Below are positions 21,207-36,409 of a DNA stretch of 64,000 nt, piece after piece. Source of the stretch: Bacteroidales bacterium (GTDB lineage Bacteria; Bacteroidota; Bacteroidia; Bacteroidales; F082). The stretch's first letter is position 1. Each line of letters opens with the position of its first letter. The stretch lies in contig JAFUAA010000049.1 in NCBI GenBank assembly GCA_017460915.1, positions 18,547-82,546 on the forward strand. Direction: 5' to 3'. A program made the translations under genes and the position numbers. The notes below the pieces were generated by a model. That model saw only the letters and a list, made by a program, of their open reading frames with translations. It searched no databases and was not told where the DNA came from.

Positions 21207-21439
21207 CAGCTTTGGGGGTTGTCGTCGATTGTATTTGGATCAGTCGCTTGATAGGGTGTGGCGGCCATGTACAACAAACCTGTAAGCACCGGCTCGCCCG
21301 TGGACTCGAAGGCAACCCAGCCGAAACCGGCCAGATCTTCACCGACGAATGCACCTATGTAAAGAAGGCAGGAAGGGACGTGGAGCACTTCGTCTTGAAA
21401 ACGATGTGGAAAGAGAACTTCAATTGGGCATTGGAGCAT
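21206..21439 (-). pseudogene. Possible 5'-truncated gene fragment upstream of the LysM gene
   Basis: High-GC 77-aa ORF coupled to the LysM start. Its 5' end collides with a low-GC + strand gene at about 21.40 kb. Confidence 0.25.
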
Positions 21440-21754
21440 GTCAGAGGAAATCCCGTCAGGAATCCCGGTATCGAAGAGGAAATCAACATCTCAAGACGAG
21501 GCATCAAGGAGTTCCTGAATCAAAACCATGACGATTATCTTGCAAAAAACGAAATGATTCGACACATTTCTGACATATTAAGCAAGGCCGAGTATATGGG
21601 GGAAACCATGTACAACGGTAGAGTTTCCAAGATATTCAGGACTCAGTTATGCGGCAAGGACAACTATATCATCGTGAACTATAACGACGAAGGAGAACTC
21701 AACCTGTACAGCATCACAACAAGCCCGAAAGTTCTGGTGGATATAAAGAAATAA
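21404..21754 (+). CDS. Low-GC hypothetical protein (116 aa), possibly a PBECR/barnase-like nuclease fold
   Basis: Start set at the ATG where composition drops. The C-terminal pattern KIFRTQLCGKDNYIIVNYNDEGELNLYSITT resembles small phage toxin/nuclease domains (weak, by eye). Confidence 0.3.
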   Translation: MWKENFNWALEHVRGNPVRNPGIEEEINISRRGIKEFLNQNHDDYLAKNEMIRHISDILSKAEYMGETMYNGRVSKIFRTQLCGKDNYIIVNYNDEGELNLYSITTSPKVLVDIKK

Positions 21755-21837
21755 GCCATCCAAACTGCCTCGTGGAACTACAATCCACGCTCTCGTTTGA
21801 ATGACTTACGACTGCAAAAATACAAAACTTTTGAATA

Positions 21838-22356
21838 ATGCAACAAAAAACTGAAAAAAAAATGACACCTGAACAATTCCAGCAGCGCATCCACGAAATG
21901 AGGGAACAGTTCGGCGAACTCTTCGACCGCTATGGCCTCATGATCGTGGGCAACGTGGCCGTCAGCTGGTTCAAGAAGAACTTCCAGAACCAGGCATGGG
22001 GCCGCATCAAGTGGAAGGAGGTGCAACGCCGCACACCTGGCACCAAGGCCAACACCTATGCCGCCAAGCACCACCCGGCCCAAACCACCCGCAAGATACT
22101 CACCGGCGACACCGGCGACCTGGGCCGATCCATCGAAATCCGTGAGGCCGCCAACGGAACTGTCACCATCTGGACAAACCCGTCCACATTCGGCTCAAAG
22201 GAACCCTACGGGCGCGTTCACAACGAGGGCCTCCGCGCAGGGCGCGGCAGCGGCTTCACCATGCCCCGCCGCCAGTTCATGGGCGAACACCCAGAACTCA
22301 ACGAACTTATTGTCAAAAAACTTGAAGAAAAACTCAATCAAATCGCACAGCAATGA
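21838..22356 (+). CDS. Virion morphogenesis / head-tail completion protein (Mu G / HK97 gp10-like)
   Basis: ILTGDTGDLGRSI ... YGRVHNEG ... MPRRQFMG pattern typical of this family. Confidence 0.55.
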   Translation: MQQKTEKKMTPEQFQQRIHEMREQFGELFDRYGLMIVGNVAVSWFKKNFQNQAWGRIKWKEVQRRTPGTKANTYAAKHHPAQTTRKILTGDTGDLGRSIEIREAANGTVTIWTNPSTFGSKEPYGRVHNEGLRAGRGSGFTMPRRQFMGEHPELNELIVKKLEEKLNQIAQQ

Positions 22357-22934
22357 TTAAATACCTCTATCTCGAACTCGAAAAGAAGCTTCTCGCCATC
22401 AACGACGAACAACCCAAGCCAAGGCCCGTGTTCAAACATTGCGACCTCTGGAACCGTCAGGTCGAGTTCCTTGAGAAGGAAACGCCCTTCCAAACGCCTG
22501 CCGTATTCGTCGAGTTCCCCAACGAAATCCAGTGGCGCACCGATGGCCAACACATTCAGGATGCCGACCTCACTATCTGCCTTCATATCGTCACACCATG
22601 GTACGCCAACACCGCAGCCGATGTGATTGACAAGAAAGTCCGCGCCATCGCGTTGGAATACCTTGACATCCCCACTGTCCTGTTCCGGCAGCTCCACGGG
22701 CAACACGGAACCGTCGAGGACAACAGCGACGACCCGCGAAACCCGAAAGTCATCGGCAACTTCAACGCCCTCACCCGTACCGCGTCCCGTGTCAACCACG
22801 ACCATGAGCGGTTTGTCGACAGCATAGAGACCTACCAATGCCACCTGAAGGATCTCTCATACAAGGTGGCCACCTTCGCCGTTGACACGGTCAACCTCGC
22901 CATCGAATTCGACCCGCATCCGGGACAATCCTAA
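22353..22934 (+). CDS. Hypothetical phage structural (neck/tail-completion-like) protein
   Basis: Start overlaps the stop of the preceding gene; no recognisable motif. Confidence 0.3.
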   Translation: MIKYLYLELEKKLLAINDEQPKPRPVFKHCDLWNRQVEFLEKETPFQTPAVFVEFPNEIQWRTDGQHIQDADLTICLHIVTPWYANTAADVIDKKVRAIALEYLDIPTVLFRQLHGQHGTVEDNSDDPRNPKVIGNFNALTRTASRVNHDHERFVDSIETYQCHLKDLSYKVATFAVDTVNLAIEFDPHPGQS

Positions 22935-24274
22935 TCCCCGGTCGTGATATACTCCATCTGGTTCGTGCTGCCCTTGAAGATGTAGCCGCATTGGTTCTCA
23001 ATCTCCATCTCTTCCAAGGGCAGCATGTTCTGTTTCCCAAAGGTCTTTTCTGCCATTGTCATAAACTCCACAATGTACATGTAGCTGCCGTGGAACTCGA
23101 AAGCCTTCATCCTTCCTGTCGGGTTGCCCTCCTCGTCCTTTTCCTCGATACCGATGAGACACTTGATCCAGTTCGGCGTTCCCTTGTTGTCGCTTTTGAT
23201 GTCATAATCATAGATAGTGAACTGTTTCCCCGCCAAGTCTTTTGGGTTCACATTGGGAGCGTCAAGGCTCCTGTTGATTCTGATTTTCTGCGTTAATTCT
23301 CTGAGTTTCATTTTCTGTTCTATTTTCTTCATTAGGTTGTAGCCGTCCGCATGGCGCAGAAGGCCGTAATAGCTCGCCCACGAGTCGTCCTTCTTGCATC
23401 GTGAGGCGCGGGCGCGTATGTTCTGACGGAGCGTCGTGTAACCCTTGTTGTGGTCGGCAACGTCCTTGTCAGGGTTACGGCGGACAATATAGCCGCAAAA
23501 CGACACCTCCTTGGTCAGCGGTTGCAGCCTGATGGCCGATGCCTTGGCCCTGATCTGCAACTTGTACCACCAGAAGTTCTGCACCCGCCATTTCAGTTGG
23601 TTGGCATCCTCCCGTGTATAGGTGGCAAAGATGCAGTCGTCAGCGTAGCGTGTCGAAAACGGTGCCGCCTGTTTGCTCCACTGGTCAAACTCAAGCATGA
23701 CAATGTGGTGCATCAGCGGCGAGGTCGGCGTTCCGATAGGCAGGCGGCCTTCCACGAAGCCTACCGTAATCCCAAACTCCACCAGTTCCCGGTCATTCGT
23801 CAGCTTGCGGAACTCTCTGCGGAAAACCTTGGGCGTGATGTGGTCGTAGCATTTCCGCTGGTCTATGATGACACAATAGTGCAGGTCGCGCCGATCATAC
23901 ACCACACGCTTCAGCCGTCGGATGACAGAGTTTTTCCTATTTGATGAGGTGATGCCGCAGCCGTGCTTGCAGTTGATGCCGTTTTTGTTGTCGTGCCAGT
24001 CGTAATATGGTTTGGCCAACAGGATGAAAAGATACTGCAAAACAAAGGTGAAAAGCAAGGGGCTGTCTATCTTGCGCTCCTTGCCGTTGGGGTTCCGCTT
24101 GGTGAGTTTCCTGTATTTGAGATGCTTTTTGTACCCGCCATTGGCTATCGATGCCATGACGGACTTGGCATAGGCTTCCGCGTTGGCCACCATGCGCTCC
24201 ACCTCTTTTTTATTGGAGTGGCCTTTGGCCGCATTGGTCATCGCGGCAAGCACTATGTCCTTTGTCACTTTCAT
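22931..24274 (-). CDS. DGR reverse transcriptase (447 aa) with C-terminal extension
   Basis: RT motifs GKERKID, VIIDQRKCYDHI, LPIGTPTSP, RYADDCIF (YADD), VSFCGYIV; lies 145 nt downstream of the TR on the same strand. Confidence 0.9.
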   Translation of the reverse strand: MKVTKDIVLAAMTNAAKGHSNKKEVERMVANAEAYAKSVMASIANGGYKKHLKYRKLTKRNPNGKERKIDSPLLFTFVLQYLFILLAKPYYDWHDNKNGINCKHGCGITSSNRKNSVIRRLKRVVYDRRDLHYCVIIDQRKCYDHITPKVFRREFRKLTNDRELVEFGITVGFVEGRLPIGTPTSPLMHHIVMLEFDQWSKQAAPFSTRYADDCIFATYTREDANQLKWRVQNFWWYKLQIRAKASAIRLQPLTKEVSFCGYIVRRNPDKDVADHNKGYTTLRQNIRARASRCKKDDSWASYYGLLRHADGYNLMKKIEQKMKLRELTQKIRINRSLDAPNVNPKDLAGKQFTIYDYDIKSDNKGTPNWIKCLIGIEEKDEEGNPTGRMKAFEFHGSYMYIVEFMTMAEKTFGKQNMLPLEEMEIENQCGYIFKGSTNQMEYITTGD

Positions 24275-24419
24275 GGCTCAAATTCAAGTTTGAGCAGTCG
24301 GCAAGCATCGGGCATCTCAGCCCAACCTTGCCACCGGCCTCCAATATCCACCGGCTGGTCTTGTATGTCTGCCGCTTCTGGGCACGGGTGACGGGCGCAT
24401 TCTTTTTCTCTTTGCTCTA

Positions 24420-24537
24420 AACTTTAGCAGAACCGCAATAGTAGCTGTTCGTATTGCCAGCGGAGTTGTTCGCATTCAGATACCGCGCCGACAGATTGCT
24501 GTTGTTCGCGTTGTTGCCTGAACGGACACCGACTCGC
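24420..24537 (-). repeat. DGR template repeat (TR), 118 bp
   Basis: Gap-free alignment to 24753..24870 with 9 mismatches, all at TR adenines (coding strand). Rich in AAC codons in the VR frame. Confidence 0.9.
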
Positions 24538-24644
24538 CCATCACCCTCGTTCCACATTAAGGGAACTTTGTCCTCGCGCCTTCAGAGGTCTCGGTCACTA
24601 TGCCGGACTTGGACGCTACGACGCGGCAAAAATAGCGTTTTTCC

Positions 24645-24683
24645 TTTTTCAAAAACAAAAAAAAACCGCCCCATAGGGCGGTT
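24645..24683 (-). terminator. Rho-independent terminator downstream of the DGR target gene
   Basis: Stem aaccgccc / gggcggtt (24664..24683), followed on the - strand by a long T-run. Confidence 0.6.
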
Positions 24684-24691
24684 GTGTGAGC

Positions 24692-24708
24692 GGGCCATTG
24701 CATGGCCC
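24692..24708 (-). promoter_or_regulatory. GC-rich hairpin just downstream of VR (candidate DGR target-recognition hairpin)
   Basis: gggccat tgc atggccc: 7-bp stem, 3-nt loop, about 45 nt 3' of the VR end. Confidence 0.35.
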
Positions 24709-24734
24709 TTGCAGCCGTTGCACGGGGTTGCACC

Positions 24735-27700
24735 CTATTGCAGTCTCCATCGAACTTGAGCAGAACCGCAAGAGTAGCTGAACGTATTGCCAGCGGAGGT
24801 GTACGCATTCAGATACCGCGCCGACAGATTGCTGTTGTACGCGTAGGTGCCTGAACGGACACCGACTCGCGTCTTCTTGCCTGCCGCGCCCCAGTTGTTT
24901 TGCACGTAGCAGTAGCCGCAATCGCCTTTCTGGTAGGATGCACCCAAGGCTGCCGGCAACGGCGTGTGGGGCAGTCGGCGACGGGCATAGCCGTTGGCCA
25001 CCGTGACAATGCTGCCCGCCAGCGCGTATTTGTCCTCGAAGGCATACTTCTCACCGATGTTGATGGCGTATCTGCTTTCATTCACCCATTGTTCCTGTTC
25101 GGGTTCCACGTACACCTTCAGCTCGTGTCCGAAGCTGCCCGATGCAGGCGAGGTCTCGCATTGGCCCACAATCTCGCAGCCACCGCCCCAATAGGGGCCG
25201 CCGTCGCCGCTCATGTCGCAGCCAAGCATCAGGCCCGTGCGGACGCAAACCTCTATCTCGTAGTCGGTCGTCTCCGTCGCGCTTGCACTGGCATAGCCCG
25301 TGAACGTGCCTGTCACAATCTTGTACACACGGCAATTCATCTCGCCATCGGCCACGGTCTTCGGCGCAAACGTGCCCGCTTGGGTCGGGTTCTCGTAACG
25401 CCATTCGTGGCCGTTGAAAAGGAAACGCTCGCCTGCCGCGATGCCGAACTCCACAGCGAACGACACCGCAATCTGGGCCTCGAGGGTCTTGCTCAGAGGG
25501 CCGTAGCTGCTCAGCCAGTTGCTCGCGTTGGTCGTGCTCTTTGTTTCGCCCGTGCCATAGTAGATGCCAGTGCTGGCCGAGAATGCACGATAGGCCCAAA
25601 CGTCCGAGCCAACGGCTTTGTAACGCATACCGCCGTTGGCTTCCCATGTGGCCTCGCTGTTGCAGGCATCGACGCTCGACACGCCGCTGCCGAATCTCGA
25701 TGCAATGCACAGGTTCTTCGTCCCAAAGGCCGTCTCCACGCAGCGAAGGAAGGTGTTCCTGGCGTGGTAGCCGCCTTCGGACACGGGCAACGGCGAAGTG
25801 GTGTCATGGTTGTTGTTGCGTGCCCTGGTCATCGTACCAATCTGGCTGATGTTGTTGGTGCGGTAGTGGCCGTTCTCGCGGAACATCCTGCATCCCGAGG
25901 CTCCGGCGTTGCCTTTGGAGTAGGTGTCGGCAGCGGGGTAGTTGAAGAAGAACGGGCGCAGTTTGTTCAAACCGTCCTCGGCGATGCTCGTCGGGGGTGA
26001 TGGGCAGATGCCCGTGGGCTTCAGCGCAAAGGTCTTCACGTCCACCCCGTCCCAAACGTTGGCGTTTGCGCCCAGAATGCCGTTCCATTCCTTGCCGCTG
26101 GAGCCAACGACGTTGTCGAGCAGGTACACTTCATCCTTGCGGCCCACGAAGACACCGTATTTAGTCTCGGTGGTCTCCCATGGCTTCAGGTAGTGGCCCA
26201 CCTCGGTGTCCACGGCCTTGTAGAGCGTCGGATGCGTCATCCGTTTCACGCTGTCCACAGTCTCGATCGAGCACAGTTTCAGGAACGCCACGGGGTCGAA
26301 AGCTCCGGCGGCGCAGTATTGCTCGGTGCAGGCCGCGTCGGTGTAGAGCGCGTTGGCCATGCACTCGTCGCGCATCGCCTCGGTGATGCCCACCACAGGC
26401 GCGAAATTGCCGTGAATGTCACGCAGCCAGTTGTTTTTCCGCAGTTCCTTGCCGGTCTTGACGGTTTCGCCATCCACGGCGGTCATGTCGACCAGCCCGG
26501 GCCGCCAATCCTCAGCCCAGTCGCGGTTGCCTATGACGGCCATTGCGTCGGGGTTGTCTTGGTCGGCGGGGCTGGCGGTGTGGGCGTTGTCGAGCCATGC
26601 GCCCACGCAGTATAGCGGCTTGGCGTACTCGCTCTCCTCAAACTGCTCCTTCAGGTCCTTGAAGGCGTTGGCCAAGGCCCTCATCGTGTCCTTGAAGCCG
26701 CGCATGTAGCTGATCACGATGGTGCCCGTGGCCTCGTTGCCTCCCACCACCTCTTCAGTGCCCATGTCGTCGGCGGGTTTGCCCGTCGGGTCGATGTTGT
26801 GTGTGCCGGTGATTGGCGTTGCCATCTGGTAGTCGACGTATTTACCTGCGAAGGCGATGGAAGGGGTGATTTGCTCCGCACTGTCGTAGACGAGCGTCAG
26901 CCCGTCGAGGGTCATGCCTTCCACGTCCGGGCGGATGAGGCCGTCGCGAAGGGCCGCGTAGGTGCCCGAGGTCGGCAACGAAGCCGTGTAGCGGTAGCCA
27001 TTTGTGGCCTCGCCTTCGCCTTCCACTATCTCGCCCTCGATTTCGGTCTCTGTCCATGTCAGGCCGGTCAGCAGCTGCTGGGCAATGTTGCGCTCGTAGG
27101 TGCCGCCACCCTCGGCATAGATGACGATGCGGTCGAAGATGCCGCCGTTGCCATGCTCAATGCCACGGAGAACGAGACAGGTCTTACCGTTGATGGTCTC
27201 CGTGTCGAACTTGCTCGTAAGGGCCGACACAGCCAAGACAAGCTCCACCGGGGCCACATATTCCTTGAACACATCGTACTCCTTGCTCCATGCCAGGTGT
27301 GCCGAAATGTCAGCCAAGGTTGCAGAGGCCGCAACCTCCACAATCATATAGCCCTCGTCGGGCAGGTAGAAGCGTTCCGTATGGCCCGCGAAGGTGTGCT
27401 CCGTCACGACGGCCACTTCACTGCCTGAAGCGGGGAGCGTGGCACAATACCACACGCCCACGATGGTACCGTCGCCCGCCTTCAGGTTGTTCCCGTTGCG
27501 GTCGGTCAGCAGGTAGCCGTTGTTCTTTTCAGCCGTGCCCCAGGCACCAGCCTCGCATTTCGGGCAGCGGATGATGCACAGCTTGTTCGTGCCGCTGCCG
27601 ATGGTGCCGTTAGCCACGGCCCCGGTCAGGTAGCCGCTCGTCTTACCGGCTGCCCATGCCTCCGGGTCGAGTTGGTTCGCACCGTTCCAACGCAGCGCGT

Positions 27701-27938
27701 TGATTTTGAAAGCTTGGCTTTCGAGGCTGCCGCTGCCGCCAATGACTTCAAGCAGCAGGGCATCCTTGCCGCTCTCGATGCTCTCGTCACCGGCTGCCGT
27801 GCGGATGACAAACTTACCGGCCACGGTCACGCGGTCGTTCAGCGAAACGAGGTCGCCCGCAATGAGATCCTCGTAGGTTCCTTTCGGATTGAAGCTGCCG
27901 CCCGATTTTCTCCCTCCTAAGTTGATCGCCTTATCCAT
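24735..27938 (-). CDS. DGR target protein (1067 aa), probable receptor-binding / fibre-like protein with variable C-terminus
   Basis: Uninterrupted ORF. VR occupies codons for ..RVGVRSGTYAYNSNLSARYLNAYTSAGNTFSYSCGSAQV just before the stop. Confidence 0.85.
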   Translation of the reverse strand: MDKAINLGGRKSGGSFNPKGTYEDLIAGDLVSLNDRVTVAGKFVIRTAAGDESIESGKDALLLEVIGGSGSLESQAFKINALRWNGANQLDPEAWAAGKTSGYLTGAVANGTIGSGTNKLCIIRCPKCEAGAWGTAEKNNGYLLTDRNGNNLKAGDGTIVGVWYCATLPASGSEVAVVTEHTFAGHTERFYLPDEGYMIVEVAASATLADISAHLAWSKEYDVFKEYVAPVELVLAVSALTSKFDTETINGKTCLVLRGIEHGNGGIFDRIVIYAEGGGTYERNIAQQLLTGLTWTETEIEGEIVEGEGEATNGYRYTASLPTSGTYAALRDGLIRPDVEGMTLDGLTLVYDSAEQITPSIAFAGKYVDYQMATPITGTHNIDPTGKPADDMGTEEVVGGNEATGTIVISYMRGFKDTMRALANAFKDLKEQFEESEYAKPLYCVGAWLDNAHTASPADQDNPDAMAVIGNRDWAEDWRPGLVDMTAVDGETVKTGKELRKNNWLRDIHGNFAPVVGITEAMRDECMANALYTDAACTEQYCAAGAFDPVAFLKLCSIETVDSVKRMTHPTLYKAVDTEVGHYLKPWETTETKYGVFVGRKDEVYLLDNVVGSSGKEWNGILGANANVWDGVDVKTFALKPTGICPSPPTSIAEDGLNKLRPFFFNYPAADTYSKGNAGASGCRMFRENGHYRTNNISQIGTMTRARNNNHDTTSPLPVSEGGYHARNTFLRCVETAFGTKNLCIASRFGSGVSSVDACNSEATWEANGGMRYKAVGSDVWAYRAFSASTGIYYGTGETKSTTNASNWLSSYGPLSKTLEAQIAVSFAVEFGIAAGERFLFNGHEWRYENPTQAGTFAPKTVADGEMNCRVYKIVTGTFTGYASASATETTDYEIEVCVRTGLMLGCDMSGDGGPYWGGGCEIVGQCETSPASGSFGHELKVYVEPEQEQWVNESRYAINIGEKYAFEDKYALAGSIVTVANGYARRRLPHTPLPAALGASYQKGDCGYCYVQNNWGAAGKKTRVGVRSGTYAYNSNLSARYLNAYTSAGNTFSYSCGSAQVRWRLQ
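24753..24870 (-). repeat. DGR variable repeat (VR), 118 bp
   Basis: See TR. Eight codons differ (N>T, N>Y x3, N>T, N>F, Y>S, K>Q). Confidence 0.9.
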
Positions 27939-28248
27939 TGCTCAAAAGTTTGATGTTGACAATCGTTCCCTCGCCGCTGCCAACCACGATGCGCAGCATC
28001 GTCCCTCTCGGCAGCATGTCGTCGTTCCAGTTCTGGACGGTCTGTCCCGCCTCAAGCGTAGTGGCCGAGTCGGGAATCTCCTGATAGGGAGTCTCACCGT
28101 CAACCGACTGCTCAAGGTGCGCCGGTGTGTTGGCCGTCAGGCCGTCGAACTCGGCAACGAAGGTGCAGTTCTTTCCGTCCTTCTCCAAGCCTTCCGAGGT
28201 ATAGCCCTCGGCCAGGCTCGCGTTCAGTTCTCTTGTTTTCTTGCTCAT
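27931..28248 (-). CDS. Hypothetical acidic 105-aa protein, overlaps the DGR target start by 8 nt
   Basis: ORF track; translational coupling to 24735..27938. Confidence 0.5.
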   Translation of the reverse strand: MSKKTRELNASLAEGYTSEGLEKDGKNCTFVAEFDGLTANTPAHLEQSVDGETPYQEIPDSATTLEAGQTVQNWNDDMLPRGTMLRIVVGSGEGTIVNIKLLSNG

Positions 28249-28292
28249 AGTCTAAGCTCCTTTTTGTTGTTTGATGGTTGTTTAGGTTGTGT

Positions 28293-28553
28293 TTAATGGT
28301 CGTTTATACATTGGTCGAACAGGCTCAGCTGGTTGGGGTCGGCCTTTTCCGGCTCCTCCTCCAGCTCCGAAGGGGGAACGCCAAGGTAAGAGAGGAAGGT
28401 CTTGTAGCAGATGCCGAACTCCGGCAATATACGCCGCCTCCAGATGGCCGCGTAGCACCGGCTCTGGTCGCCAGGCTGCCATTCCGCCTCCACGATTTCC
28501 CGGATGGCCTTCATCCGTTTCTTGGTGCTACGGTAACGCTTCTTCCTGCCCAT
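28293..28553 (-). CDS. Small basic protein, possible DNA-binding / late-activator-position protein
   Basis: Basic N-terminus (MGRKKRYRSTKKRMK). It is the last small gene before the 105-aa/target pair, a position comparable to Mu C/Mor (inference only). Confidence 0.35.
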   Translation of the reverse strand: MGRKKRYRSTKKRMKAIREIVEAEWQPGDQSRCYAAIWRRRILPEFGICYKTFLSYLGVPPSELEEEPEKADPNQLSLFDQCINDH

Positions 28554-28556
28554 GGT

Positions 28557-28739
28557 CTATCCCTCCCTGTGCGGTTCCACCGTGATGGTGATTTCGGTTG
28601 TCTTGTCCACGCGCCCGCTGCCTTCGCAAACCGGGCATTGCTTCGTTGTGAACGGCAAAAGGGAGTCCACCACACCCATCCCAAGACAGTTGCGGCAAAT
28701 CTCTATCTTGTCGAACTTGTAGTTTCTCGTTTTGCTCAT
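28557..28739 (-). CDS. DnaJ-type zinc-finger mini-protein (60 aa)
   Basis: Two CxxCxGxG motifs (CRNCLGMG, CPVCEGSG). Confidence 0.5.
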   Translation of the reverse strand: MSKTRNYKFDKIEICRNCLGMGVVDSLLPFTTKQCPVCEGSGRVDKTTEITITVEPHREG

Positions 28740-29431
28740 TGCTCTTTAGTTTTGGTGTCCTTTTTGAAATTTCCTTCGTTGTATGCCGCAAGTGCGGCAA
28801 GGTTCTTCATCCTTTCCTTCAGCCGCGACGTGCCGCCCCGCTCGGCCCCGAAGCTGCCGAAGTCGTGTTCCCTGGCCTGTTCCTCACGAAGTGCGACGAA
28901 GGCATCGCATTTCTCACGCATGTAGCCGGTGAAAGCCTTCATCACCATTGCCTTGTTCAGCCCGCCATAAACCTGCCCGACCTCGCCGTTGGCCAGTCGG
29001 TCGGCCACGATTTGGATGTCGGCCAGGTTCCAGTCCATGTCGTCCTCCACCAGCATTTGTGTCACCTCCTTCGAGAGCATGGCCATCGCTTCCGGCTTCA
29101 GCGGTCGGGCCACGTTCATCATGTCCTCCACGATGCTCAGGTGGGTCAGCACTAAGGCGGCAAGCGTCCGCTCCTCGAAGTCCTTGGCAAACCGTTTCAC
29201 GCTCACCTGCCCCGTGCTCCTCACCGATTCTGTGGCCGTGGTGATTGAGCGGTCGGCTGCGGCCACCACGGCGACAGCCTCCAGCGGAAGGCCGTCGCCA
29301 GTCCTGTCGTAGAGCCGCTGAGCCACAGGGCATTTCTGTAGCCGTTCCCTTGTCGGAACCGCCACGTCGTTTCCCCCTTTTAAGGGGGCAGGGGGATTAG
29401 AGATAGTCGAAAGCTGCTTTCCGTCTTGCAT
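28736..29431 (-). CDS. Hypothetical phage protein (~231 aa)
   Basis: Start moved to the internal ATG MQDGKQL.. to limit overlap with the upstream gene. Confidence 0.4.
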   Translation of the reverse strand: MQDGKQLSTISNPPAPLKGGNDVAVPTRERLQKCPVAQRLYDRTGDGLPLEAVAVVAAADRSITTATESVRSTGQVSVKRFAKDFEERTLAALVLTHLSIVEDMMNVARPLKPEAMAMLSKEVTQMLVEDDMDWNLADIQIVADRLANGEVGQVYGGLNKAMVMKAFTGYMREKCDAFVALREEQAREHDFGSFGAERGGTSRLKERMKNLAALAAYNEGNFKKDTKTKEQ

Positions 29432-29873
29432 GGTCGCTGTTGTTTTTGAGGTTGGAATAGATGCTCTCGAAGTCATGGTTCAGCCCGTAGGGGTTGAAGC
29501 GGTTCTCGAAGTACCACTGGTTCTTCATCGTGCACACCGCCTGAAGGAACATCTTCAGGCTGCCGATGCGCAGCGCATCCGTCACCAATTCAGTGCCGCC
29601 TTCCGAAAGCCGGTCGCTTATCTTCAGCAGCAGCTCCTTCATGTTCTTGAAGTCGGCTGCCGAGAACTTGCCGTTAGGGGCATAGCTCACACCCTTCCTC
29701 TGCCGGTAGGTTTCCTCAAACACCGTCAGGGCCTCAAACACTGGCATGGCAGGGCCTGAAGGCGGCTCGCTCGCATTGTCCTTTATGCTTGCCAATATGA
29801 GGTTCACCAGCTTGATCTTGTCGGTCTTCCGCATCCGGCTCACCGTGTCCATTATGCCTTCCATGTCGTTCAT
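29397..29873 (-). CDS. Hypothetical phage protein (158 aa)
   Basis: Start set at MNDMEGIMDT.., adjacent to the stop of the upstream zinc-ribbon ORF. Confidence 0.45.
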   Translation of the reverse strand: MNDMEGIMDTVSRMRKTDKIKLVNLILASIKDNASEPPSGPAMPVFEALTVFEETYRQRKGVSYAPNGKFSAADFKNMKELLLKISDRLSEGGTELVTDALRIGSLKMFLQAVCTMKNQWYFENRFNPYGLNHDFESIYSNLKNNSDHARRKAAFDYL

Positions 29874-30061
29874 TGTCTTCGGTTTTGTTGGCATTGGTCG
29901 ATGACTCGCACTCTCGTCGTCGCGTGTCTCGCGTCTTTTATCTCGTCCATCGTGCGCCGTGCGCATTTGGGGCAGGTGTCGCCCCAAACGCGCCGGTCGT
30001 ACTCGCAGCCACACTTCGGGCACACGGCCCAAATCTCGTGGTTTTGTTTTACGATAGCCAT
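29870..30061 (-). CDS. Zinc-ribbon protein (63 aa)
   Basis: CPKCGC ... CPKC; its start shares a base with the Gam stop. Confidence 0.45.
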   Translation of the reverse strand: MAIVKQNHEIWAVCPKCGCEYDRRVWGDTCPKCARRTMDEIKDARHATTRVRVIDQCQQNRRQ

Positions 30062-30612
30062 CACGCGGCCTCCTCCTTCTTGGGTTCCACAAAGAAGGTC
30101 TCGTCCTGGTCTACCTTGATGCCGCATTCAGCCATCGCTTCGGTCATGGTGATGGGCTTCTCGTGGTTCGTTGCCGTCACTTCCTTCAGTTCGCGGTCGG
30201 CAAGCAGCTTGTCTTTTGCAATCTCATCCGTCGTGCGCACATAGCCGGGAAGGAACTGTTTCACCAGTTGCAGTGCGCTCGCCCAGGTGAATCCCTTAAG
30301 GGTCTTCAGCTTCGGGGTGCCGGTGCGGAACCCGATGGTGCCGTGCGTCATTTCGAGGCTCTTTTTCTTGGTGAAGAGTTCTGCCTGGTTCTCCACCGCG
30401 TAAGCTTGCAGCGTGTCGAAGGCTTTCTCCCTCTCATCGCTGAGGCGCGTCAGTTCGTCGGCGCGTTTCTCGCGGATCTTGGCGCATTGCAGCTCGATGT
30501 CCGCGTTGATTTTGTTGATTTGTGCGTCGGCCTTCGCGTAGCTGGCGAAAGCGTCGTTGGCCTGTTCAGCCGTGATGCCCTGAATGAGGGTCTTTTTCTG
30601 TCTTGTTGCCAT
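30061..30612 (-). CDS. Host-nuclease inhibitor Gam (Mu Gam family)
   Basis: N-terminal coiled-coil (INKINADIELQCAKIREKRADEL) and KSLEMTHGTIGFRTGTPKL core typical of Mu-type Gam. Confidence 0.7.
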   Translation of the reverse strand: MATRQKKTLIQGITAEQANDAFASYAKADAQINKINADIELQCAKIREKRADELTRLSDEREKAFDTLQAYAVENQAELFTKKKSLEMTHGTIGFRTGTPKLKTLKGFTWASALQLVKQFLPGYVRTTDEIAKDKLLADRELKEVTATNHEKPITMTEAMAECGIKVDQDETFFVEPKKEEAA

Positions 30613-30632
30613 TTTGAATGATTTTTAGGTGA

Positions 30633-30860
30633 TTATTGTTGGTTGTCTTTATTGGTGTATCGTATGCAAGCCGGTTGGTTGGCTTTTACCTTCAGGAGGC
30701 CATTGGCGGTGCGTCCGCTTTCATGCGCTTTGCAGTAGTAGGTGCTTTTGCTGTAGTCGTGCCGCACACGGTTGTCGCATGTTCTGCACGTTTTGCCCTG
30801 CATGATACGGCGCACACGCTCGTCGGTATAGTCTTCTATGTTGAACAATGTGCCGTCCAT
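30633..30860 (-). CDS. Small Cys-rich protein (75 aa)
   Basis: CRTC ... CKAH ... C pattern. Confidence 0.4.
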   Translation of the reverse strand: MDGTLFNIEDYTDERVRRIMQGKTCRTCDNRVRHDYSKSTYYCKAHESGRTANGLLKVKANQPACIRYTNKDNQQ

Positions 30861-31028
30861 TTATCCGAAGATTTCTGCATTGAATACCGCGTCGAGCCTC
30901 GCCAGTAGAACTTCTCTATTGCATGAGTCGCAGCATAAACCTTTGGCCACAGGCATTGCATTGTTGCCAAATTCTTCCTTCGTTTTGCCGCATATCACGC
31001 ACTTGATGAAATGTCCCGGTGTTTTCAT
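30861..31028 (-). CDS. Small zinc-finger protein (55 aa)
   Basis: Start set at MKTPGHF..; CVIC ... CCDSC. Confidence 0.4.
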   Translation of the reverse strand: MKTPGHFIKCVICGKTKEEFGNNAMPVAKGLCCDSCNREVLLARLDAVFNAEIFG

Positions 31029-31468
31029 TGCTGGCCTCCTTTCAGTAAGTTCACAAGATCTTGAATGCAAAGTGCAATCCCGTCCAACATACCATACATC
31101 AGTTCGGGTTCAATTCTATGGCCTGGAGGAATAATGGCAATCACCTTCTTTCCGGCACCCTTCATCCATCCAGCTTCAAGGTGTGCACTTCTGCCACATG
31201 GCAAGCAAAGGACACAGATGTCGGCGGCTTTCATCGCATCAAAATCCCGGTTGAATCCGCATCGTGCATGGTCGCTCTTCAAAGCTTCCCTATACTCTCT
31301 CATGCTCCATCCTTGCCAGTTCTCGTCAATCCGGCTCCACTGGAAGCCCTCGCCGTCGTTTGGGTGCTTAAAGTCATAGACTTCATAGCCCAGCAATCGC
31401 AGTTCTTTCACAAGCGACTCCTGATGTTCGTTACGCCAGCTGCTGGCAACATATACTTTCTGTTTCAT
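31025..31468 (-). CDS. Nucleoside 2-deoxyribosyltransferase / DNPH1-like fold protein
   Basis: VYVASSW.. N-terminal strand and ..CGRSAHLEAGWMKGAGKKV pattern resembling the NDT/Rcl family. Confidence 0.4.
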   Translation of the reverse strand: MKQKVYVASSWRNEHQESLVKELRLLGYEVYDFKHPNDGEGFQWSRIDENWQGWSMREYREALKSDHARCGFNRDFDAMKAADICVLCLPCGRSAHLEAGWMKGAGKKVIAIIPPGHRIEPELMYGMLDGIALCIQDLVNLLKGGQQ

Positions 31469-31713
31469 TGCTCACCTCCTTCCTTATTCCATTCCAGGAG
31501 CAAATACGGCCCGTCGGAAATCAGTTCCGCAGCGGCCCGTTCCCGTGCAGCCTTTGTGTTGTAGGTGTTCAGTGTTTTCCAAACGAAGTCGTCGCTGTCG
31601 CAGAATCTAATCTGATAGTGAATCCCGTCCTTACACGGGTAGTCGGTCAAGCGGATAAACTTGAATCCGGCTTTCAGCAGTTTCTCTCTGCTCATTTTGT
31701 TGAGATTTGCCAT
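31465..31713 (-). CDS. Hypothetical phage protein (82 aa)
   Basis: ORF track; overlapping start/stop with neighbours. Confidence 0.4.
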   Translation of the reverse strand: MANLNKMSREKLLKAGFKFIRLTDYPCKDGIHYQIRFCDSDDFVWKTLNTYNTKAARERAAAELISDGPYLLLEWNKEGGEQ

Positions 31714-31733
31714 TTTTATTGCTGTTTAAGTGA

Positions 31734-32363
31734 TTATTGAATAGTGTTTATTGGTGTGTGTCCGTATTTCGCCGCGCCTTCAGGCCAAACGGTGTATGGC
31801 TCGCCGCCACCGAAACGGCTCTGGGGATAGGCCCGGTAGCCCTCGACGAAAATCTTCACGAAAGCATCGTATTTCACCGAATCGGCCACGGCTCCTTTGG
31901 GATTGTGGCCGTCGGCGTGGCTTATGAAGATGAAAAGCTTCTGCCGGAATTCGTCGCGCAGCCGCTTGTATTCGTTATAGGTGAGGCCCGTGTATTGCAG
32001 TGAGTCGATGATGACCACCTTGGGCGACCGTTGTTTGCGCAACCGCTCCTTCAGGTCGTCGATGCTTTCGCCGTCGAGCAGCACGAAGTTCCGCTTCACG
32101 TCGGCAAAGCCAACGTCCTCGATGGCGTGTTGCATCGAGAGGCTCAAACCTTCCTCAAGGCTGTCGTAGGCCACTCGCACGTGCTTGGCCAACGCCTTGG
32201 CCAGCTGCAAGGCGAAACGCGTCTTACCGTTTGCCGACCCTCCCCACACGATCCAACTGCCGGTGAGTTCCACTTCGCCAAGGGCCAAGTCAAGGCCGCC
32301 GTCGAGCAGGTAGGTCTTCGTCTTGTAGTTCCGAATGTCGGTTATGGTAAGGGCGCGTTTCAT
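31734..32363 (-). CDS. RecA-superfamily P-loop ATPase (KaiC/DnaB-C-like)
   Basis: Walker A GGSANGKT, Walker B VVIIDSLQY. Confidence 0.5.
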   Translation of the reverse strand: MKRALTITDIRNYKTKTYLLDGGLDLALGEVELTGSWIVWGGSANGKTRFALQLAKALAKHVRVAYDSLEEGLSLSMQHAIEDVGFADVKRNFVLLDGESIDDLKERLRKQRSPKVVIIDSLQYTGLTYNEYKRLRDEFRQKLFIFISHADGHNPKGAVADSVKYDAFVKIFVEGYRAYPQSRFGGGEPYTVWPEGAAKYGHTPINTIQ

Positions 32364-32854
32364 CAGTTCAAGGAAAAGTTGTGTTTAAGTATGGGTAAAT
32401 CTGTCCTTGCCCTTGCAGCCGTCTGCTTGCGGCAGAATTCATTGTAAATGCGGGTCAGCTCGCCTTCAGTTATCTCGTTGAAGCTGTCACGCCCGGCAGC
32501 GCGTGTGGCGATGCTCTTGGCGTAGTCAACCGTGTATTTCACTCCGCACAGCTCGCCGTAGGCACAAATGGCCTTGATGACTCCCTTGCGCTTTTTGTCC
32601 ATGCGGTTCTGCTTGCTTTGTGGTGTGGGTTTCTCCTGTGGCTTGTGGGTATACTGCTCCAGCCTGCGGATGAGGTTCATGCACTCGATGAAGGTCAACT
32701 CGCTGGTGTGGGTGGTGCGCCCGTTGGTCTCGTCGCTCACCAGGTCGGCCACGCTGTCCTTCAGGCCGAGTTCGTTCAGGAGCCAATACAGCCTGCGGTT
32801 CTGGTTGAGGGTGCGCTTGTCGTCGGCCTGCAGTTTCGTCGGTGTGGTTCTCAT
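32363..32854 (-). CDS. GemA / Mu gp16-like regulatory protein (DUF1018-like)
   Basis: Position immediately after the MuB-like gene and a two-lobed helical sequence; weak by-eye similarity. Confidence 0.4.
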   Translation of the reverse strand: MRTTPTKLQADDKRTLNQNRRLYWLLNELGLKDSVADLVSDETNGRTTHTSELTFIECMNLIRRLEQYTHKPQEKPTPQSKQNRMDKKRKGVIKAICAYGELCGVKYTVDYAKSIATRAAGRDSFNEITEGELTRIYNEFCRKQTAARARTDLPILKHNFSLN

Positions 32855-33708
32855 TTCGCGGCCTCCTTTCCCTTCAGTATCGCGTGGATCTTGCGGCGCA
32901 CACGGCGCAGGTCGCTCTCCGAGTCATTGATCACGATGTCGATGTCCCTTGGGTCGGTCACGCCGTTGGCCTCGCACACCGCCGTGATGTCGGCTGCGCT
33001 CACGCCCTTCAGGGTGACGCACTTCCTTCCCACGCGGCTCCAGATCTCGTTGTAGCCCTTCCTGTTGGCCTTCACTCCCTTTCGGATGCGGAGCTCAAGG
33101 TGGCTCGTGGCCACCATGAGCAGGCCGCATTCGCCCTCAAGGGCATTATAAAGAGATATGAAGAAATAGAGTACCTTGTCGCTCAGTTTGTCGGCCTCGT
33201 CGAGGATGAGCAGCGGGGCTTCCTGCATCTTCAGGTAGCGCACCGCGTTAAGCATCATCTCGTTCACGCTCAGTCCGGCTGCGTCGCGGCCCATCGCCTG
33301 CATCAGCTCGTTCAGGAAGGCCTTGCGGTTCCAATATTCGTTGCAGCACAGCAAATACGTCTGCTTGTGCGCGTTGGTGTATTGCTTCAGGGCAAAGGTC
33401 TTGCCGCTGCCCGCGTCGCCCGTCACGGCCATCACAAGGGCGTTTTCCTGCACATCTTCGAGGATGCGCATCAGGGTGGTGAAGTCGCGGGTGGCCACGG
33501 CGTTCCATTTCTCTTCCTTCCAGCCGATTTGGGCCGCCACATTGCGCCACATGTCGTCCTTGATGAGTTCCCATTTTCCGTTCAGCATTTGGCTCACGGT
33601 GGCCGCGCTCACATTCTTCAACGAGTTGGCCGCCTTCGCCTGGCTTTCGTAACGCTCGCAGTAGTTGCGCAGCGCGTTCACGATTTGTTGTTTCTTGATG
33701 TCTTCCAT
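32851..33708 (-). CDS. MuB-like AAA+ transposition ATPase
   Basis: N-terminal HTH (NVSAATVSQMLNGKW), Walker A GDAGSGKTF, Walker B LLILDEADKL; directly downstream of the transposase. Confidence 0.75.
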   Translation of the reverse strand: MEDIKKQQIVNALRNYCERYESQAKAANSLKNVSAATVSQMLNGKWELIKDDMWRNVAAQIGWKEEKWNAVATRDFTTLMRILEDVQENALVMAVTGDAGSGKTFALKQYTNAHKQTYLLCCNEYWNRKAFLNELMQAMGRDAAGLSVNEMMLNAVRYLKMQEAPLLILDEADKLSDKVLYFFISLYNALEGECGLLMVATSHLELRIRKGVKANRKGYNEIWSRVGRKCVTLKGVSAADITAVCEANGVTDPRDIDIVINDSESDLRRVRRKIHAILKGKEAAK

Positions 33709-33728
33709 ATCTCTCTATTTTTGAATGA

Positions 33729-35678: not shown

Positions 35679-35697
35679 TTCTCTTGTTTTCTCTTTG

Positions 35698-35777
35698 TGC
35701 GCGGGTTGGGACTCGAACCCAACAGTTTACCGAGGCGTTTGAAGTGCTCCTCCCATCCGTTCAGCGGCCTACCGCGC
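35698..35777 (-). ncRNA. tRNA-like sequence (degenerate cloverleaf) with CUUCAAA loop
   Basis: Canonical T-arm TTGGG-TTCGAGT-CCCAA. 6-bp acceptor GCGCGG/CCGCGC. Candidate anticodon loop CTTCAAA (UCA). D-arm and anticodon stem are imperfect. Confidence 0.3.
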
Positions 35778-35824
35778 TACCATCCTCGTCAGTCTTATTC
35801 TTCAGGGTAGGGGTCGTGGTCTTC

Positions 35825-36025
35825 CTACAGGTTTATTCCGTTCTGCTCGGCCTCCTCCTTTTTTGCGTCGGCAAACGACGCAGCGGCCAACACAAAGAGC
35901 ATGGCCGCCGTTCCAATATGCCACCACGCTTTGTTGGCGATGGCACCGATGATGCAGACCAGGGCAAAGGCAGCGAGGCCGAACACCTGGATCATGTCGA
36001 TAATGTAGATTAGGCTGTGTCTCAT
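35825..36025 (-). CDS. Small membrane protein (66 aa, two TM helices)
   Basis: ORF track; hydrophobic segments. Confidence 0.4.
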   Translation of the reverse strand: MRHSLIYIIDMIQVFGLAAFALVCIIGAIANKAWWHIGTAAMLFVLAAASFADAKKEEAEQNGINL

Positions 36026-36037
36026 GGCGTTCCCTCC

Positions 36038-36385
36038 TTACAGTTTGATTCTGATACCTTGTTTGTCGCTGTCGAACTCGTTGTCGGCCTTCACGATGCA
36101 GAGCGCGTCGATGGTGCAGCCCTCGGCAGCAAAGCCGTGGAGGTTTTCCATCAGGCCGGTGGAGCGGTCGATGGTGACGAAGCTCTCAACCTTGGCCTCT
36201 TTCATGGTCTGAATGAAGTCGTGGACATCGCGTCCCCACAGGTGACCGTCTTCGACGATCTCTTCCTTGCTGCGGCTGTACCACCATGTCCAGTAGGCCT
36301 CAAGTTGGCCCTCGGTGAATTTCTCACCTTGTTCAATCCGTTTTCCCATTGCCTCGAAGTAGGCATTGTCTCTGTGTTTGTTCAT
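36038..36385 (-). CDS. Hypothetical early protein (115 aa)
   Basis: ORF track; early-operon position. Confidence 0.45.
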   Translation of the reverse strand: MNKHRDNAYFEAMGKRIEQGEKFTEGQLEAYWTWWYSRSKEEIVEDGHLWGRDVHDFIQTMKEAKVESFVTIDRSTGLMENLHGFAAEGCTIDALCIVKADNEFDSDKQGIRIKL

Positions 36386-36409
36386 TTCTTCTTTCTCCTT
36401 ATTTATTGG

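Follow-up and report, generated by a model that had tools for sequence, protein, structure and literature searches.

Does the pair of 118-nt repeats lying beside a reverse transcriptase (RT) gene in a probable Bacteroidales chromosome belong to a diversity-generating retroelement (DGR), and has that element been at work recently? DGRs are the only natural systems known to hypermutate proteins in a targeted way in prokaryotes, and a natural case that is well resolved and directly shown to be active serves as a useful point of reference. The locus lies in a stretch of 64,000 nt (here termed the window) from Bacteroidales bacterium (F082), i.e., positions 18,547-82,546 of contig JAFUAA010000049.1 in assembly GCA_017460915.1. 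An original prediction had described it as a complete DGR. Our analysis indicates that it is very probably a DGR without Avd, with the layout target-VR/TR/RT, on the left arm of a Mu-like prophage.

Results

The Two Repeats Differ Only at Template Adenines

The genes and repeats at the center of the analysis are listed below (positions are those of the window).

24735..27938, minus strand: target gene, 1067 amino acids, no signal peptide, with the variable repeat at its 3' end
24753..24870, minus strand: variable repeat (VR), 118 nt, hypervariable positions seen across 24772-24852
24420..24537, minus strand: template repeat (TR), 118 nt with 31 adenines, identical in all near-identical copies
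22931..24274, minus strand: RT, 447 amino acids; RT and thumb, residues 1-295; YADD motif, 23636-23647; motif 4, PIGTPTSP
Residues 296-338 of the RT, minus strand: disordered linker between the thumb and the C-terminal domain
Residues ~340-433 of the RT (22976-23257), minus strand: conserved alpha/beta C-terminal domain

When re-aligned on the coding (minus) strand, TR and VR gave an ungapped alignment of 118 nt with nine mismatches. The TR base was adenine at all nine, and none of the 87 non-adenine positions was changed; the probability that nine random mismatches would all fall on the 31 adenines by chance is 2.3e-6. Seven of the nine changes were in AAC codons, at codon positions 1 or 2, and the recomputed translations (..SGNNANNSNLSARYLNANNSAGNTNSYYCGSAKV for TR and ..SGTYAYNSNLSARYLNAYTSAGNTFSYSCGSAQV for VR) matched those quoted originally. 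The VR is in frame at the 3' end of the protein-coding target gene, ending 15 nt (five codons) before the stop codon of the 1067-residue open reading frame (ORF), and the TR ends 145 nt from the ATG of the 447-residue RT ORF, on the same strand. The repeat lengths, the adenine count, the bias toward AAC codons, the position of the VR at the extreme 3' end of its gene and the distance from TR to the YADD RT had all been put forward in the original prediction, and all were reproduced. The claim that every mismatch is at a TR adenine also stands, but one of the nine, at 24758 (A in TR, C in VR; codon AAA to CAA), is a fixed difference and not a variable site. A single VR was present, no second one being found in the 64-kb window.

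The Cassette Lies on a Truncated Mu-like Prophage

The cassette is on the left arm of a Mu-like prophage in a probable Bacteroidales chromosome, with the following features.

21295..36400, minus strand: remnant of a Mu-like transposable prophage, carrying the cassette (left end, ~36.4 kb, approximate)
33729-35678: MuA, within the remnant
32851-33708: MuB, within the remnant
30061-30612: Gam, within the remnant
21838-22356, plus strand: tail-S-like gene, within the remnant
Up to 21754, plus strand: MuF-LPD3 gene, 3' half only, within the remnant
21274..21295: deletion junction, where homology to intact phage copies ends

Portal, terminase, protease/capsid and tail genes, which are present in intact relatives, were absent from the window. 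Since these virion genes are missing and homology to the intact copies stops at 21274-21295, the window holds a deletion derivative. The same junction was found in two other copies, L092 (on a 289-kb contig) and L002, and intact copies with an identical TR (L093 and L094) were found in samples of the same study. Several contigs ended exactly at 21295.

The exact element was absent from IMG/VR, where N-masked TR patterns of 112 nt and 63 nt gave no match, and megablast likewise matched the cassette to none of 50,697 phage records. Look-ups by exact protein, on the other hand, were successful.

Near-Identical Copies Vary at Template Adenines

Public assemblies carrying the same element had an identical TR and a different VR, and differed from the window almost only at TR-adenine sites within the VR. 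L002 (10,168 bp) showed 14 differences from the window, all at such sites, as were all 14 in L082 (12,318 bp) and 14 of the 15 in each of L084 and L092. Across six VR alleles associated with the same TR, there were 80 substitutions at TR adenines and two at non-adenines. Twenty-five of the 31 TR adenines were used, 24 of these 25 being at codon positions 1 or 2, and none of the six alleles contained a stop codon. The copies carrying these alleles were at least 99.6% identical, some having no other difference over 12 kb. The original prediction had staked itself on adenine-restricted VR variation among related genomes, and this is what the near-identical copies display. The DGR has been very recently active in this lineage.

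The six alleles bear on two ways of reading the copy in the window. One is that only the intact phage lineage has a working DGR, the truncated copy being a passive carrier that received its VR allele by homologous recombination with an intact phage, either superinfecting or co-resident. The coexistence of intact copies having an identical TR in the same study's samples fits this reading, as does the breaking of contigs exactly at the junction, which suggests that truncated and intact forms occur together in the samples. In addition, the window's own VR allele was seen in the window alone, while the L002-type allele occurred in truncated copies (L092, L002) and also in an intact one (L094); because the first is unique and the second is also on L094, recombination with an intact phage may have supplied the window copy. 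However, no disabling change was seen in the RT, TR, spacer, promoter, VR, hairpins or target gene of the window, each of which is intact. Moreover, the window and L002/L092 have the deletion junction in common, and 14 TR adenines set them apart in 10-12.6 kb of otherwise identical sequence, so that recombination would need a tract of less than 120 bp, or would have to leave no other trace. We regard a passive carrier as improbable.

The other reading, that the cassette is a fossil of past DGR activity no longer diversifying anywhere, would be compatible with the window taken alone, where a single TR/VR comparison records only history, but it is effectively refuted by six alleles with an identical TR in copies this similar, and by the intactness of all components.

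The RT Belongs to a Family Associated with TR/VR Pairs

The RT contains an RVT_1 domain (E = 3.5e-10). In hhalign, its family profile aligned end to end with BPP-1 Brt (residues 13-322, 97% probability), although group II intron LtrA scored as high (7.2e-12, against 5.7e-11 for Brt). Foldseek comparison of the predicted structure gave a similar picture, with matches to group II RTs (1e-12) and to bRT (2.9e-11; TM-score of 0.73 to the bRT structure 8ub7). NCBIfam and PDB (phmmer) searches ranked group II and retron RTs first, far below the cut-offs; the NCBIfam group II model, for example, reached 46.9 bits where its cut-off is 300. Sequence and fold alone leave this RT unseparated from group II intron RTs.

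We assign it a DGR role because its family is consistently associated with TR/VR pairs: an A-biased pair lay directly upstream of RT relatives (46%-90% identity) in about 50 of 59 IMG/VR viral loci and in most of six loci from metagenome-assembled genomes. The proposal that it is instead a group II intron, retron or defense RT, beside an unrelated 118-nt duplication, could draw on the rankings and the LtrA score given above, but has a negligible probability given this association, an adenine-only pattern that was reproduced in all alleles, the absence from the RT of an En or maturase-specific domain, retron RT models that score far below cut-offs, and an Rfam scan of 22800-25200 (E values up to 1) that detected RNA families of neither group II introns nor retrons, with no msr/msd match next to the gene.

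In the DGR RT clade motif 4 is (I/V/L)GxxxSQ; a minor variant, SP, has also been described (Schillinger et al., 2012, PMC3521204). Among relatives of the window RT the I-G of this motif was invariant (36 of 36), and the Q position was occupied by P, S or A, never by Q. The C-terminal domain had no similarity to Pfam, PDB or BPP-1 Avd entries. Its acidic pI of 5.6 speaks against a simple basic clamp on nucleic acid of the Avd kind.

The Element Has No Avd Gene

No avd gene was found, the 215-nt interval between VR and TR containing no ORF, and the neighboring genes shown in relatives carried none of the Avd Pfam families. One conserved small ORF lies next to the target.

27931..28248, minus strand: conserved acidic ORF, 105 amino acids (pI 4.4), overlapping the start of the target gene by 8 nt

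This ORF was considered as a hidden Avd and ruled out, being acidic and without a Pfam hit. Avd is common but not universal, occurring in 74% of curated DGRs (PMC5758913). The element had been called complete, and target-VR, TR and RT are indeed all present; without avd, it is complete only in the Avd-less sense.

Conserved Noncoding Elements Surround the TR and Follow the VR

The noncoding features are, in order of transcription:

24753..24771, minus strand: invariant IMH-like 3' end of VR, TTGCGGTTCTGCTCAAGTT (CGSAQV in translation), where C is fixed at 24758
24692..24735, minus strand: three GCA-triloop hairpins 3' of VR (24725-24735, 24715-24725 and 24692-24708)
24654..24683, minus strand: predicted intrinsic terminator of the target gene, an 8-bp stem followed by a T run, conserved in relatives
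24627..24659, minus strand: candidate Bacteroidetes-type promoter, read from the sequence (TTTG, 24656-24659; TAnnTTTG, 24627-24634)
24538..24622, minus strand: conserved structured leader of the TR transcript, with helices H1-H3 and the 5' arm of H4 (24535-24546)
24420-24438, minus strand: IMH* counterpart at the 3' end of TR, with A where VR has C
24275..24419, minus strand: TR-RT spacer, with an A-rich linker, the 3' arm of H4 (24386-24397) and hairpins H5-H10

The segment TTGCGGTTCTGCTCAAGTT matched only VR and TR in the window. In all Mu-like relatives, an invariant TTGCGGTTCTGCT-C-AAGTT in VR corresponded to the same segment in TR with A or G in place of the C (position 24758), and homology stopped 5 nt further on. 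This fixed one-base difference resembles the IMH/IMH* distinction, and the segment may act in homing.

The hairpins that follow the VR are embedded in five TGCAA motifs spaced by about 10 nt, and this region had a DNA fold z-score of -3.4. We counted 128 GCA-triloop hairpins in the 7.67 kb that follow the VRs and 53 in 627 kb of background sequence, an enrichment of about 200-fold; all 59 loci had them. They occurred as two to five tandem copies with stems of 4-8 bp, the loop being constant while the stems varied and covaried. In phage DGRs, a hairpin or cruciform with a GC stem of 7-10 bp and a GRNA tetraloop lies just 3' of the VR (PMC3240598). A hairpin in this position is a DGR feature, present here in a variant form of tandem GCA triloops.

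The TAnnTTTG element directly preceding the leader was conserved in relatives, and 24627..24659 probably functions as a promoter. An alignment of relatives supported an RNA structure of 53 pairs, 12 of them with compensatory changes; 97.3% of cells were paired, compared with 35%-45% in slid controls. The covariation shows the TR to lie within a structured RNA, in which the 12-bp helix H4 closes the TR into a loop. A pairing between leader and spacer suggested by single-sequence folding was dropped, the alignment supporting local leader hairpins plus the closing helix H4.

The Target Is Probably a Receptor-Binding or Tail-Fiber Protein

The 91 close homologs of the target (1065-1489 amino acids) had no Pfam domain. 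Its C-terminal module of about 330 residues recurred in 190 clusters among 1.84e9 representatives, in every case at the C terminus of proteins that varied in length. The target is probably a receptor-binding or tail-fiber protein, a role to which two matches point: a "putative tail fiber" of the phage csAssE-Sib, 36% identical to target residues 459-1062, and, as the best BFVD match of the predicted fold, a "Receptor binding complex" protein (E = 1.5e-14). Receptor binding is put forward as the ancestral role, because the prophage that carries the gene is a deletion derivative without virion genes; the originally proposed receptor-binding function is upheld to that extent, and not as a demonstrated current role.

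The fold of the VR domain was approached by several routes. An AlphaFold2 model of the full-length target, built with 36 close homologs, had a pLDDT below 50 over the VR region and was poor over the C-terminal half; a Foldseek search of the VR domain against the PDB returned nothing below E = 0.5. Searches of PDB and Pfam, with both the single sequence and a family profile, gave no hits, and hhalign against Mtd gave a probability of 0.2%. A profile search of 5.8e9 proteins recovered only unannotated relatives. None of these results lent support to the C-type-lectin fold expected in the original prediction, or to an Ig fold. The "Tentaclin" paper (PMC10743442), checked for the target family and csAssE-Sib, was not relevant.

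The Cassette Resembles Known DGRs but Differs in Its Parts

The prototype DGR is that of BPP-1 (mtd-VR / avd / TR / brt). As in BPP-1, target-VR, TR and RT follow in this order on one strand, TR and VR differ only at adenines in AAC codons, the VR occupies the very 3' terminus of a gene for a phage tail protein, and the 3' ends of the repeats carry a fixed difference of the IMH/IMH* type. Unlike BPP-1, the window element lacks Avd, motif 4 of its RT is IGxxxSP rather than IGxxxSQ, the RT has an extra C-terminal domain of about 100 residues, and the target domain has no detectable similarity to Mtd. The BPP-1 hairpin, a lone GC stem of 8 bp capped by a GAAA/GRNA tetraloop (PMC3240598), contrasts with the tandem GCA-triloop hairpins here, of which we found no mention in the DGR literature compared.

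An arrangement of target, TR and RT with no accessory gene is that of the Avd-less "Architecture A" DGRs, which make up 29% of curated DGRs (Wu et al., 2018, PMC5758913). C-terminal extensions of up to ~150 residues after the thumb are likewise found in about 20% of DGR RTs (PMC5758913).

A relative already annotated as a DGR, with VR, IMH, TR and IMH* marked, is carried by csAssE-Sib (OR575929.1; human gut, 151 kb). Its RT is of the family found in the window (49% identity over 97% of the length, C-terminal domain included), and the two elements share the C-terminal target module, the VR-TR-RT layout without avd, and GCA-loop hairpins (five in csAssE-Sib) after the VR. They differ in that csAssE-Sib is a large virulent-type phage rather than a Mu-like prophage, the two targets are unrelated in their N-terminal halves, the TR-RT spacer of csAssE-Sib measures 71 nt rather than 145 nt, and the leaders have only an GACCTCTGAA...AGAGGT element in common.

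Discussion

The anatomy of the locus, the adenine-only mismatches in AAC codons and the confinement of VR variation to adenines in near-identical copies support the DGR reading. By this account, a promoter at ~24627-24659 would drive a single transcript comprising the structured leader, TR, structured spacer and RT ORF. The RT would copy TR into cDNA, misincorporating opposite template adenines, a step that we infer because of the outcome, i.e., substitutions at TR adenines. By analogy with BPP-1, the cDNA would then replace the VR at the 3' end of the 1067-residue target gene, presumably directed by the invariant IMH-like segment and the tandem GCA-triloop hairpins downstream. In the six alleles, the outcome is seen as some 15 recoded codons, most of them AAC, within the target's C-terminal domain, and no stop codons.

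This is a new and well-documented example of a known system, and the picture of what DGRs are is unchanged. Its value is in an unusually clean population signature, with up to 12 kb identical, all differences at TR adenines, and six alleles under one TR. It also defines the conserved noncoding parts of an Avd-less lineage: promoter, leader, TR-closing helix, spacer hairpins, IMH/IMH* base and GCA-triloop hairpins. Each of these parts can be tested directly as a determinant when Avd-independent DGRs are engineered in Bacteroidales, and the lineage is widespread in Bacteroidales phages of the herbivore and human gut.

A more far-reaching reading, which we offer tentatively and consider doubtful, is that this RT lineage is a mechanistically distinct, Avd-independent DGR subtype, marked by IGxxxS(P/S/A), the C-terminal domain and the long-range TR-closing helix. 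The C-terminal domain might then take over part of the RNA-gripping role of Avd, and an array of GCA-triloop DNA hairpins, not a single GRNA cruciform, might mark the homing site. On the same reading, the diversified target module might be built on neither a C-type lectin nor an Ig scaffold, and the cassette might keep diversifying a tail-fiber-like protein in a prophage no longer able to produce virions. If true, such diversification would amount to host domestication, or would provide a helper phage with receptor-binding proteins.

Hankyphage is also a temperate transposable (MuA/MuB) Bacteroidales phage whose DGR diversifies a tail protein (see also PMC12135933). A tblastn search with the window RT and target against the 50,697 phage records identified csAssE-Sib as the only close relative, so the DGR modules are not closely related to those of Hankyphage. 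The MuA proteins of Bacteroides phages in the same set of records were less than 60% identical to that of the window, the best matches listed ranging from 24.5% to 40.7%.

The TR and VR Differ Only at Template Adenines

The locus is a real, complete and recently active diversity-generating retroelement (DGR) lacking the accessory protein Avd; as an example of a known system it is very well supported. The original reading of the locus as a complete DGR is supported, by the anatomy of the template repeat (TR) and variable repeat (VR) and by variation among VR alleles. The lineage departs from the usual form in some respects: its reverse transcriptase (RT) has an SP motif and a C-terminal domain, its VR scaffold is unannotated, and GCA-triloop hairpins stand in tandem after the VR. 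The two repeats are:

24537 to 24420, minus strand: TR, 118 nt
24870 to 24753, minus strand: VR, 118 nt, aligning with the TR without gaps

When the repeats were re-aligned on the minus strand they differed at nine positions, each with A in the TR, which contains 31 adenines; none of the 87 other positions differed (P = 2.3e-6 for nine random mismatches all falling on A). In seven cases the altered codon is AAC, the change falling on its first or second position. The stop codon of the 1067-aa target ORF (24735-27938) is located five codons past the end of the VR, and the RT ORF (447 aa, 22931-24274, with a YADD motif) begins 145 nt after the end of the TR. Probing the 64-kb window with the conserved ends of the repeat, 5' and 3', revealed these two copies alone. 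Because the alignment, mismatch tally and ORF positions were all reproduced, every number in the earlier description (118-nt repeats, nine adenine-only mismatches, ORFs and YADD) proved accurate.

The 3'-most mismatch, at 24758 (A in the TR, C in the VR, changing codon AAA to CAA), is of a different kind. In all Mu-like relatives the VR reads ...GCTCAAGTT and the TR ...GCT(A/G)AAGTT, with homology stopping 5 nt further on. The mismatch at 24758 is fixed across relatives and did not arise by adenine mutagenesis. This one base is all that separates the IMH-like end of the VR from the TR, and it behaves like the IMH/IMH* distinction (between the 3' end segments of VR and TR) that makes the VR the recipient. 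The variable VR sites observed span 24772-24852.

VR Alleles in Other Assemblies

By exact-protein look-up, we found this element in further public assemblies. Between the window and contig L002 (10,168 bp, SRR12529357) there were 14 differences, all of them in the VR at sites of TR adenines; the same was true of 14 out of 14 differences for L082 (12,318 bp), and of 14 out of 15 for both L084 and L092. Six VR alleles were found with the same TR, except for a single change in the TR of one of them. Pooling them gave 80 substitutions at adenines of the TR and 2 elsewhere; of the 31 adenines, 25 were hit, and no stop codon was created. Adenine-restricted variation among related genomes had been named beforehand as a check; its presence here, across genomes that share the TR, shows that mutagenic retrohoming took place in this lineage very recently.

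One VR allele, that of L098 (at the equivalent of 24753-24870), carries 10 adenine substitutions and two at other bases, a G-to-T change at repeat index 66 and a C-to-T change at index 102. The latter may be either plain point mutations or the result of rare misincorporation at non-adenine bases.

Structured RNA Around the TR and Hairpins after the VR

The following features lie around the TR:

24656-24659, minus strand: TTTG, forming a candidate promoter together with the next motif
24627-24634, minus strand: TAnnTTTG motif, conserved upstream of the TR
24535-24546 with 24386-24397, minus strand: 12-bp closing helix that loops the TR and an A-rich linker

The TAnnTTTG and TTTG elements form a candidate promoter that matches the Bacteroidetes consensus, with a predicted transcription start near 24620, and the stretch from there to the start of the RT is strongly conserved in relatives. 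When 14 relatives were aligned, a set of 53 base pairs, those of the 12-bp closing helix among them, proved 97.3% paired, compared with 35-45% when the partners were slid; 12 pairs showed compensatory changes, a number equalled in none of 500 shuffles. Structured RNA on both sides of the TR parallels phage BPP-1, where flanking RNA segments on both sides of the TR are reportedly needed (bioRxiv 2023.10.23.563531).

Beyond the VR are:

24725-24735, 24715-24725 and 24692-24708, minus strand: three perfect hairpins with GCA triloops, directly 3' of the VR
24654-24683, minus strand: intrinsic terminator, 3' of these hairpins

The 59 loci that have a TR/VR pair contain 128 GCA-triloop hairpins within the 7.67 kb lying 3' of their VRs, as against 53 in 627 kb of other sequence; the enrichment is approximately 200-fold and holds throughout the RT lineage (all loci L001, L006-L077). 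The stems vary and the GCA loop is constant, with no enrichment of other loop sequences. In BPP-1 one GC-rich hairpin, bearing a GRNA tetraloop, is required at the corresponding site, and similar hairpins occur 3' of other phage VRs (Guo et al., PMC3240598). The tandem GCA-triloop array is a lineage-specific variant of this BPP-1-type element. Just past the target stop codon there are five TGCAA motifs (24692-24745, minus strand), about 10 nt apart, of which three form the GCA-triloop hairpins. Because the other two lie outside hairpins, the motif itself may be recognized, in addition to the structure.

The RT and Its Relatives

For the RT, RVT_1 was the only match above the curated cut-off. 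More than 360 full-length relatives (about 445-456 aa) were found in gut and rumen metagenomes. An adenine-biased repeat pair was present directly upstream of the RT in about 50 of 59 IMG/VR loci encoding relatives of 46-86% identity, invariably in the order VR, TR, RT. Six related loci from metagenomic genome bins (roe deer, goat and horse) were labeled Bacteroidales, Bacteroidia or Bacteroidaceae, and five of the six had an adenine-biased pair, taking all repeat pairs listed. Locus L018 (DAIOUZ010000005.1), whose RT is 82% identical and which has its own TR/VR pair, comes from a bin labeled Candidatus Limiplasma, to our knowledge not a Bacteroidota genus; the label is probably a binning artefact, because all other host labels are Bacteroidales. 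The sole close relative among 50,697 phage records was csAssE-Sib (OR575929.1), in which the depositors had annotated VR, IMH, TR and IMH*, so that at least one public record already identifies the lineage as a DGR.

Motif 4 of the RT is PIGTPTSP; none of 36 relatives departs from its I and G, and the position of the canonical Q is occupied by P, S or A; SP is among the rare motif 4 variants of DGR RTs (Schillinger et al., PMC3521204). The RT is equally close to group II intron RTs and to Brt, the BPP-1 RT, both by sequence (hhalign, 7.2e-12 against group II LtrA and 5.7e-11 against Brt) and by fold (Foldseek, 1e-12 against 6ar1, group II, and 2.9e-11 against 8ub7). Its functional assignment as a DGR RT rests on association with the TR/VR pair, not on clade placement. 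An RNA family scan of the locus detected no intron or retron RNA family around it. The RT also has a C-terminal domain:

22976-23257, minus strand: residues ~340-433, predicted alpha/beta fold, pLDDT about 80

In conservation this equals or exceeds the polymerase core, and the C-terminal 135 residues are acidic (pI 5.6). No Pfam, PDB or Avd similarity was found for the domain; C-terminal extensions occur in about 20% of DGR RTs, and accessory genes are absent from 29% of curated DGRs (Wu et al., PMC5758913). No avd gene was found in the gap between VR and TR (215 nt in the window, 185-370 nt in relatives), nor any Avd Pfam family on the genes listed for relatives; the 105-aa ORF next to the target, being acidic and without database matches, is no Avd candidate either.

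The Target Protein and an Upstream Small ORF

The target lacks a signal peptide, and searches of Pfam and PDB turned up no relatives of it. Its last ~330 aa constitute a module present in 190 clusters among 1.84e9 representatives, invariably C-terminal and joined to N-terminal parts of widely differing length, which fits modular receptor-binding proteins. In csAssE-Sib the homologous protein carries the annotation putative tail fibre, and among BFVD folds a "Receptor binding complex" protein matches best (E 1.5e-14). In the AF2 model the VR region has a pLDDT below 50, and every profile comparison for the fold of that region was negative. The C-type-lectin fold of the earlier description stays a prediction, which these negatives do not refute. 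Next to the target gene is:

27931-28248, minus strand: acidic 105-aa ORF, overlapping the target start codon by 8 nt

Its product, which had zero database matches, is present in 67 index blocks and identical even where RT identity is only 87%; it may serve the target protein as a partner or chaperone.

Probable Retrohoming in a Prophage with a Deletion

Preceding the cassette are the early genes of a transposable, Mu-like prophage:

33729-35678: MuA
32851-33708: MuB
30061-30612: Gam

The early region also encodes a nucleoside deoxyribosyltransferase-like protein (31025-31468, minus strand; phrog_12607, E 3.5e-55), adjoined by a conserved ATPase (31734-32363), a content unusual for a Mu-like phage. 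On either side lies ordinary bacterial chromosome, with Lgt, NusA, glycoside hydrolases and an ECF sigma factor among its genes.

L093 (a 37-kb contig) and L094 (within a 527-kb contig) carry intact copies that share the TR; in these the tail-S-like gene is followed by an LPD3-containing protein (352-363 aa, in the MuF position), portal, Mu gp36, large terminase and ClpP protease. Homology of the window to these copies ends at 21274-21295, inside the LPD3-containing gene, and past this junction come host-type genes (LysM, ABC/GNAT, ECF-sigma), where the intact copies run on into portal, terminase and capsid genes. The window prophage is therefore an internal deletion derivative, unable to form virions alone. 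The identical junction is present in L092 (a 289-kb contig) and L002, and at least five independent contigs terminate exactly at 21295, which suggests that truncated and intact forms coexist in samples.

The VR of the window copy may have come by recombination with an intact phage, and the L002 allele is indeed also found on the intact prophage L094. Against this, the truncated copies in the window and in L002/L092 have different VRs on otherwise identical sequence, which favours retrohoming having continued after the deletion.

Adjoining the outer side of the junction, a 379-aa protein (19531-20670, minus strand) has weak ABC_tran and GNAT matches and a very strong match to a phage family of unknown function (phrog_11143, E 8e-141), so that this flank may be part of another mobile element rather than core chromosome. 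Further out, AAA_14/DUF4143-type ATPase genes (10637-11977 and 14727-15590, plus strand) lie on either side of a GH2 glycosidase gene; the second, with the DUF4143 part only, may be a 5'-truncated paralogue.
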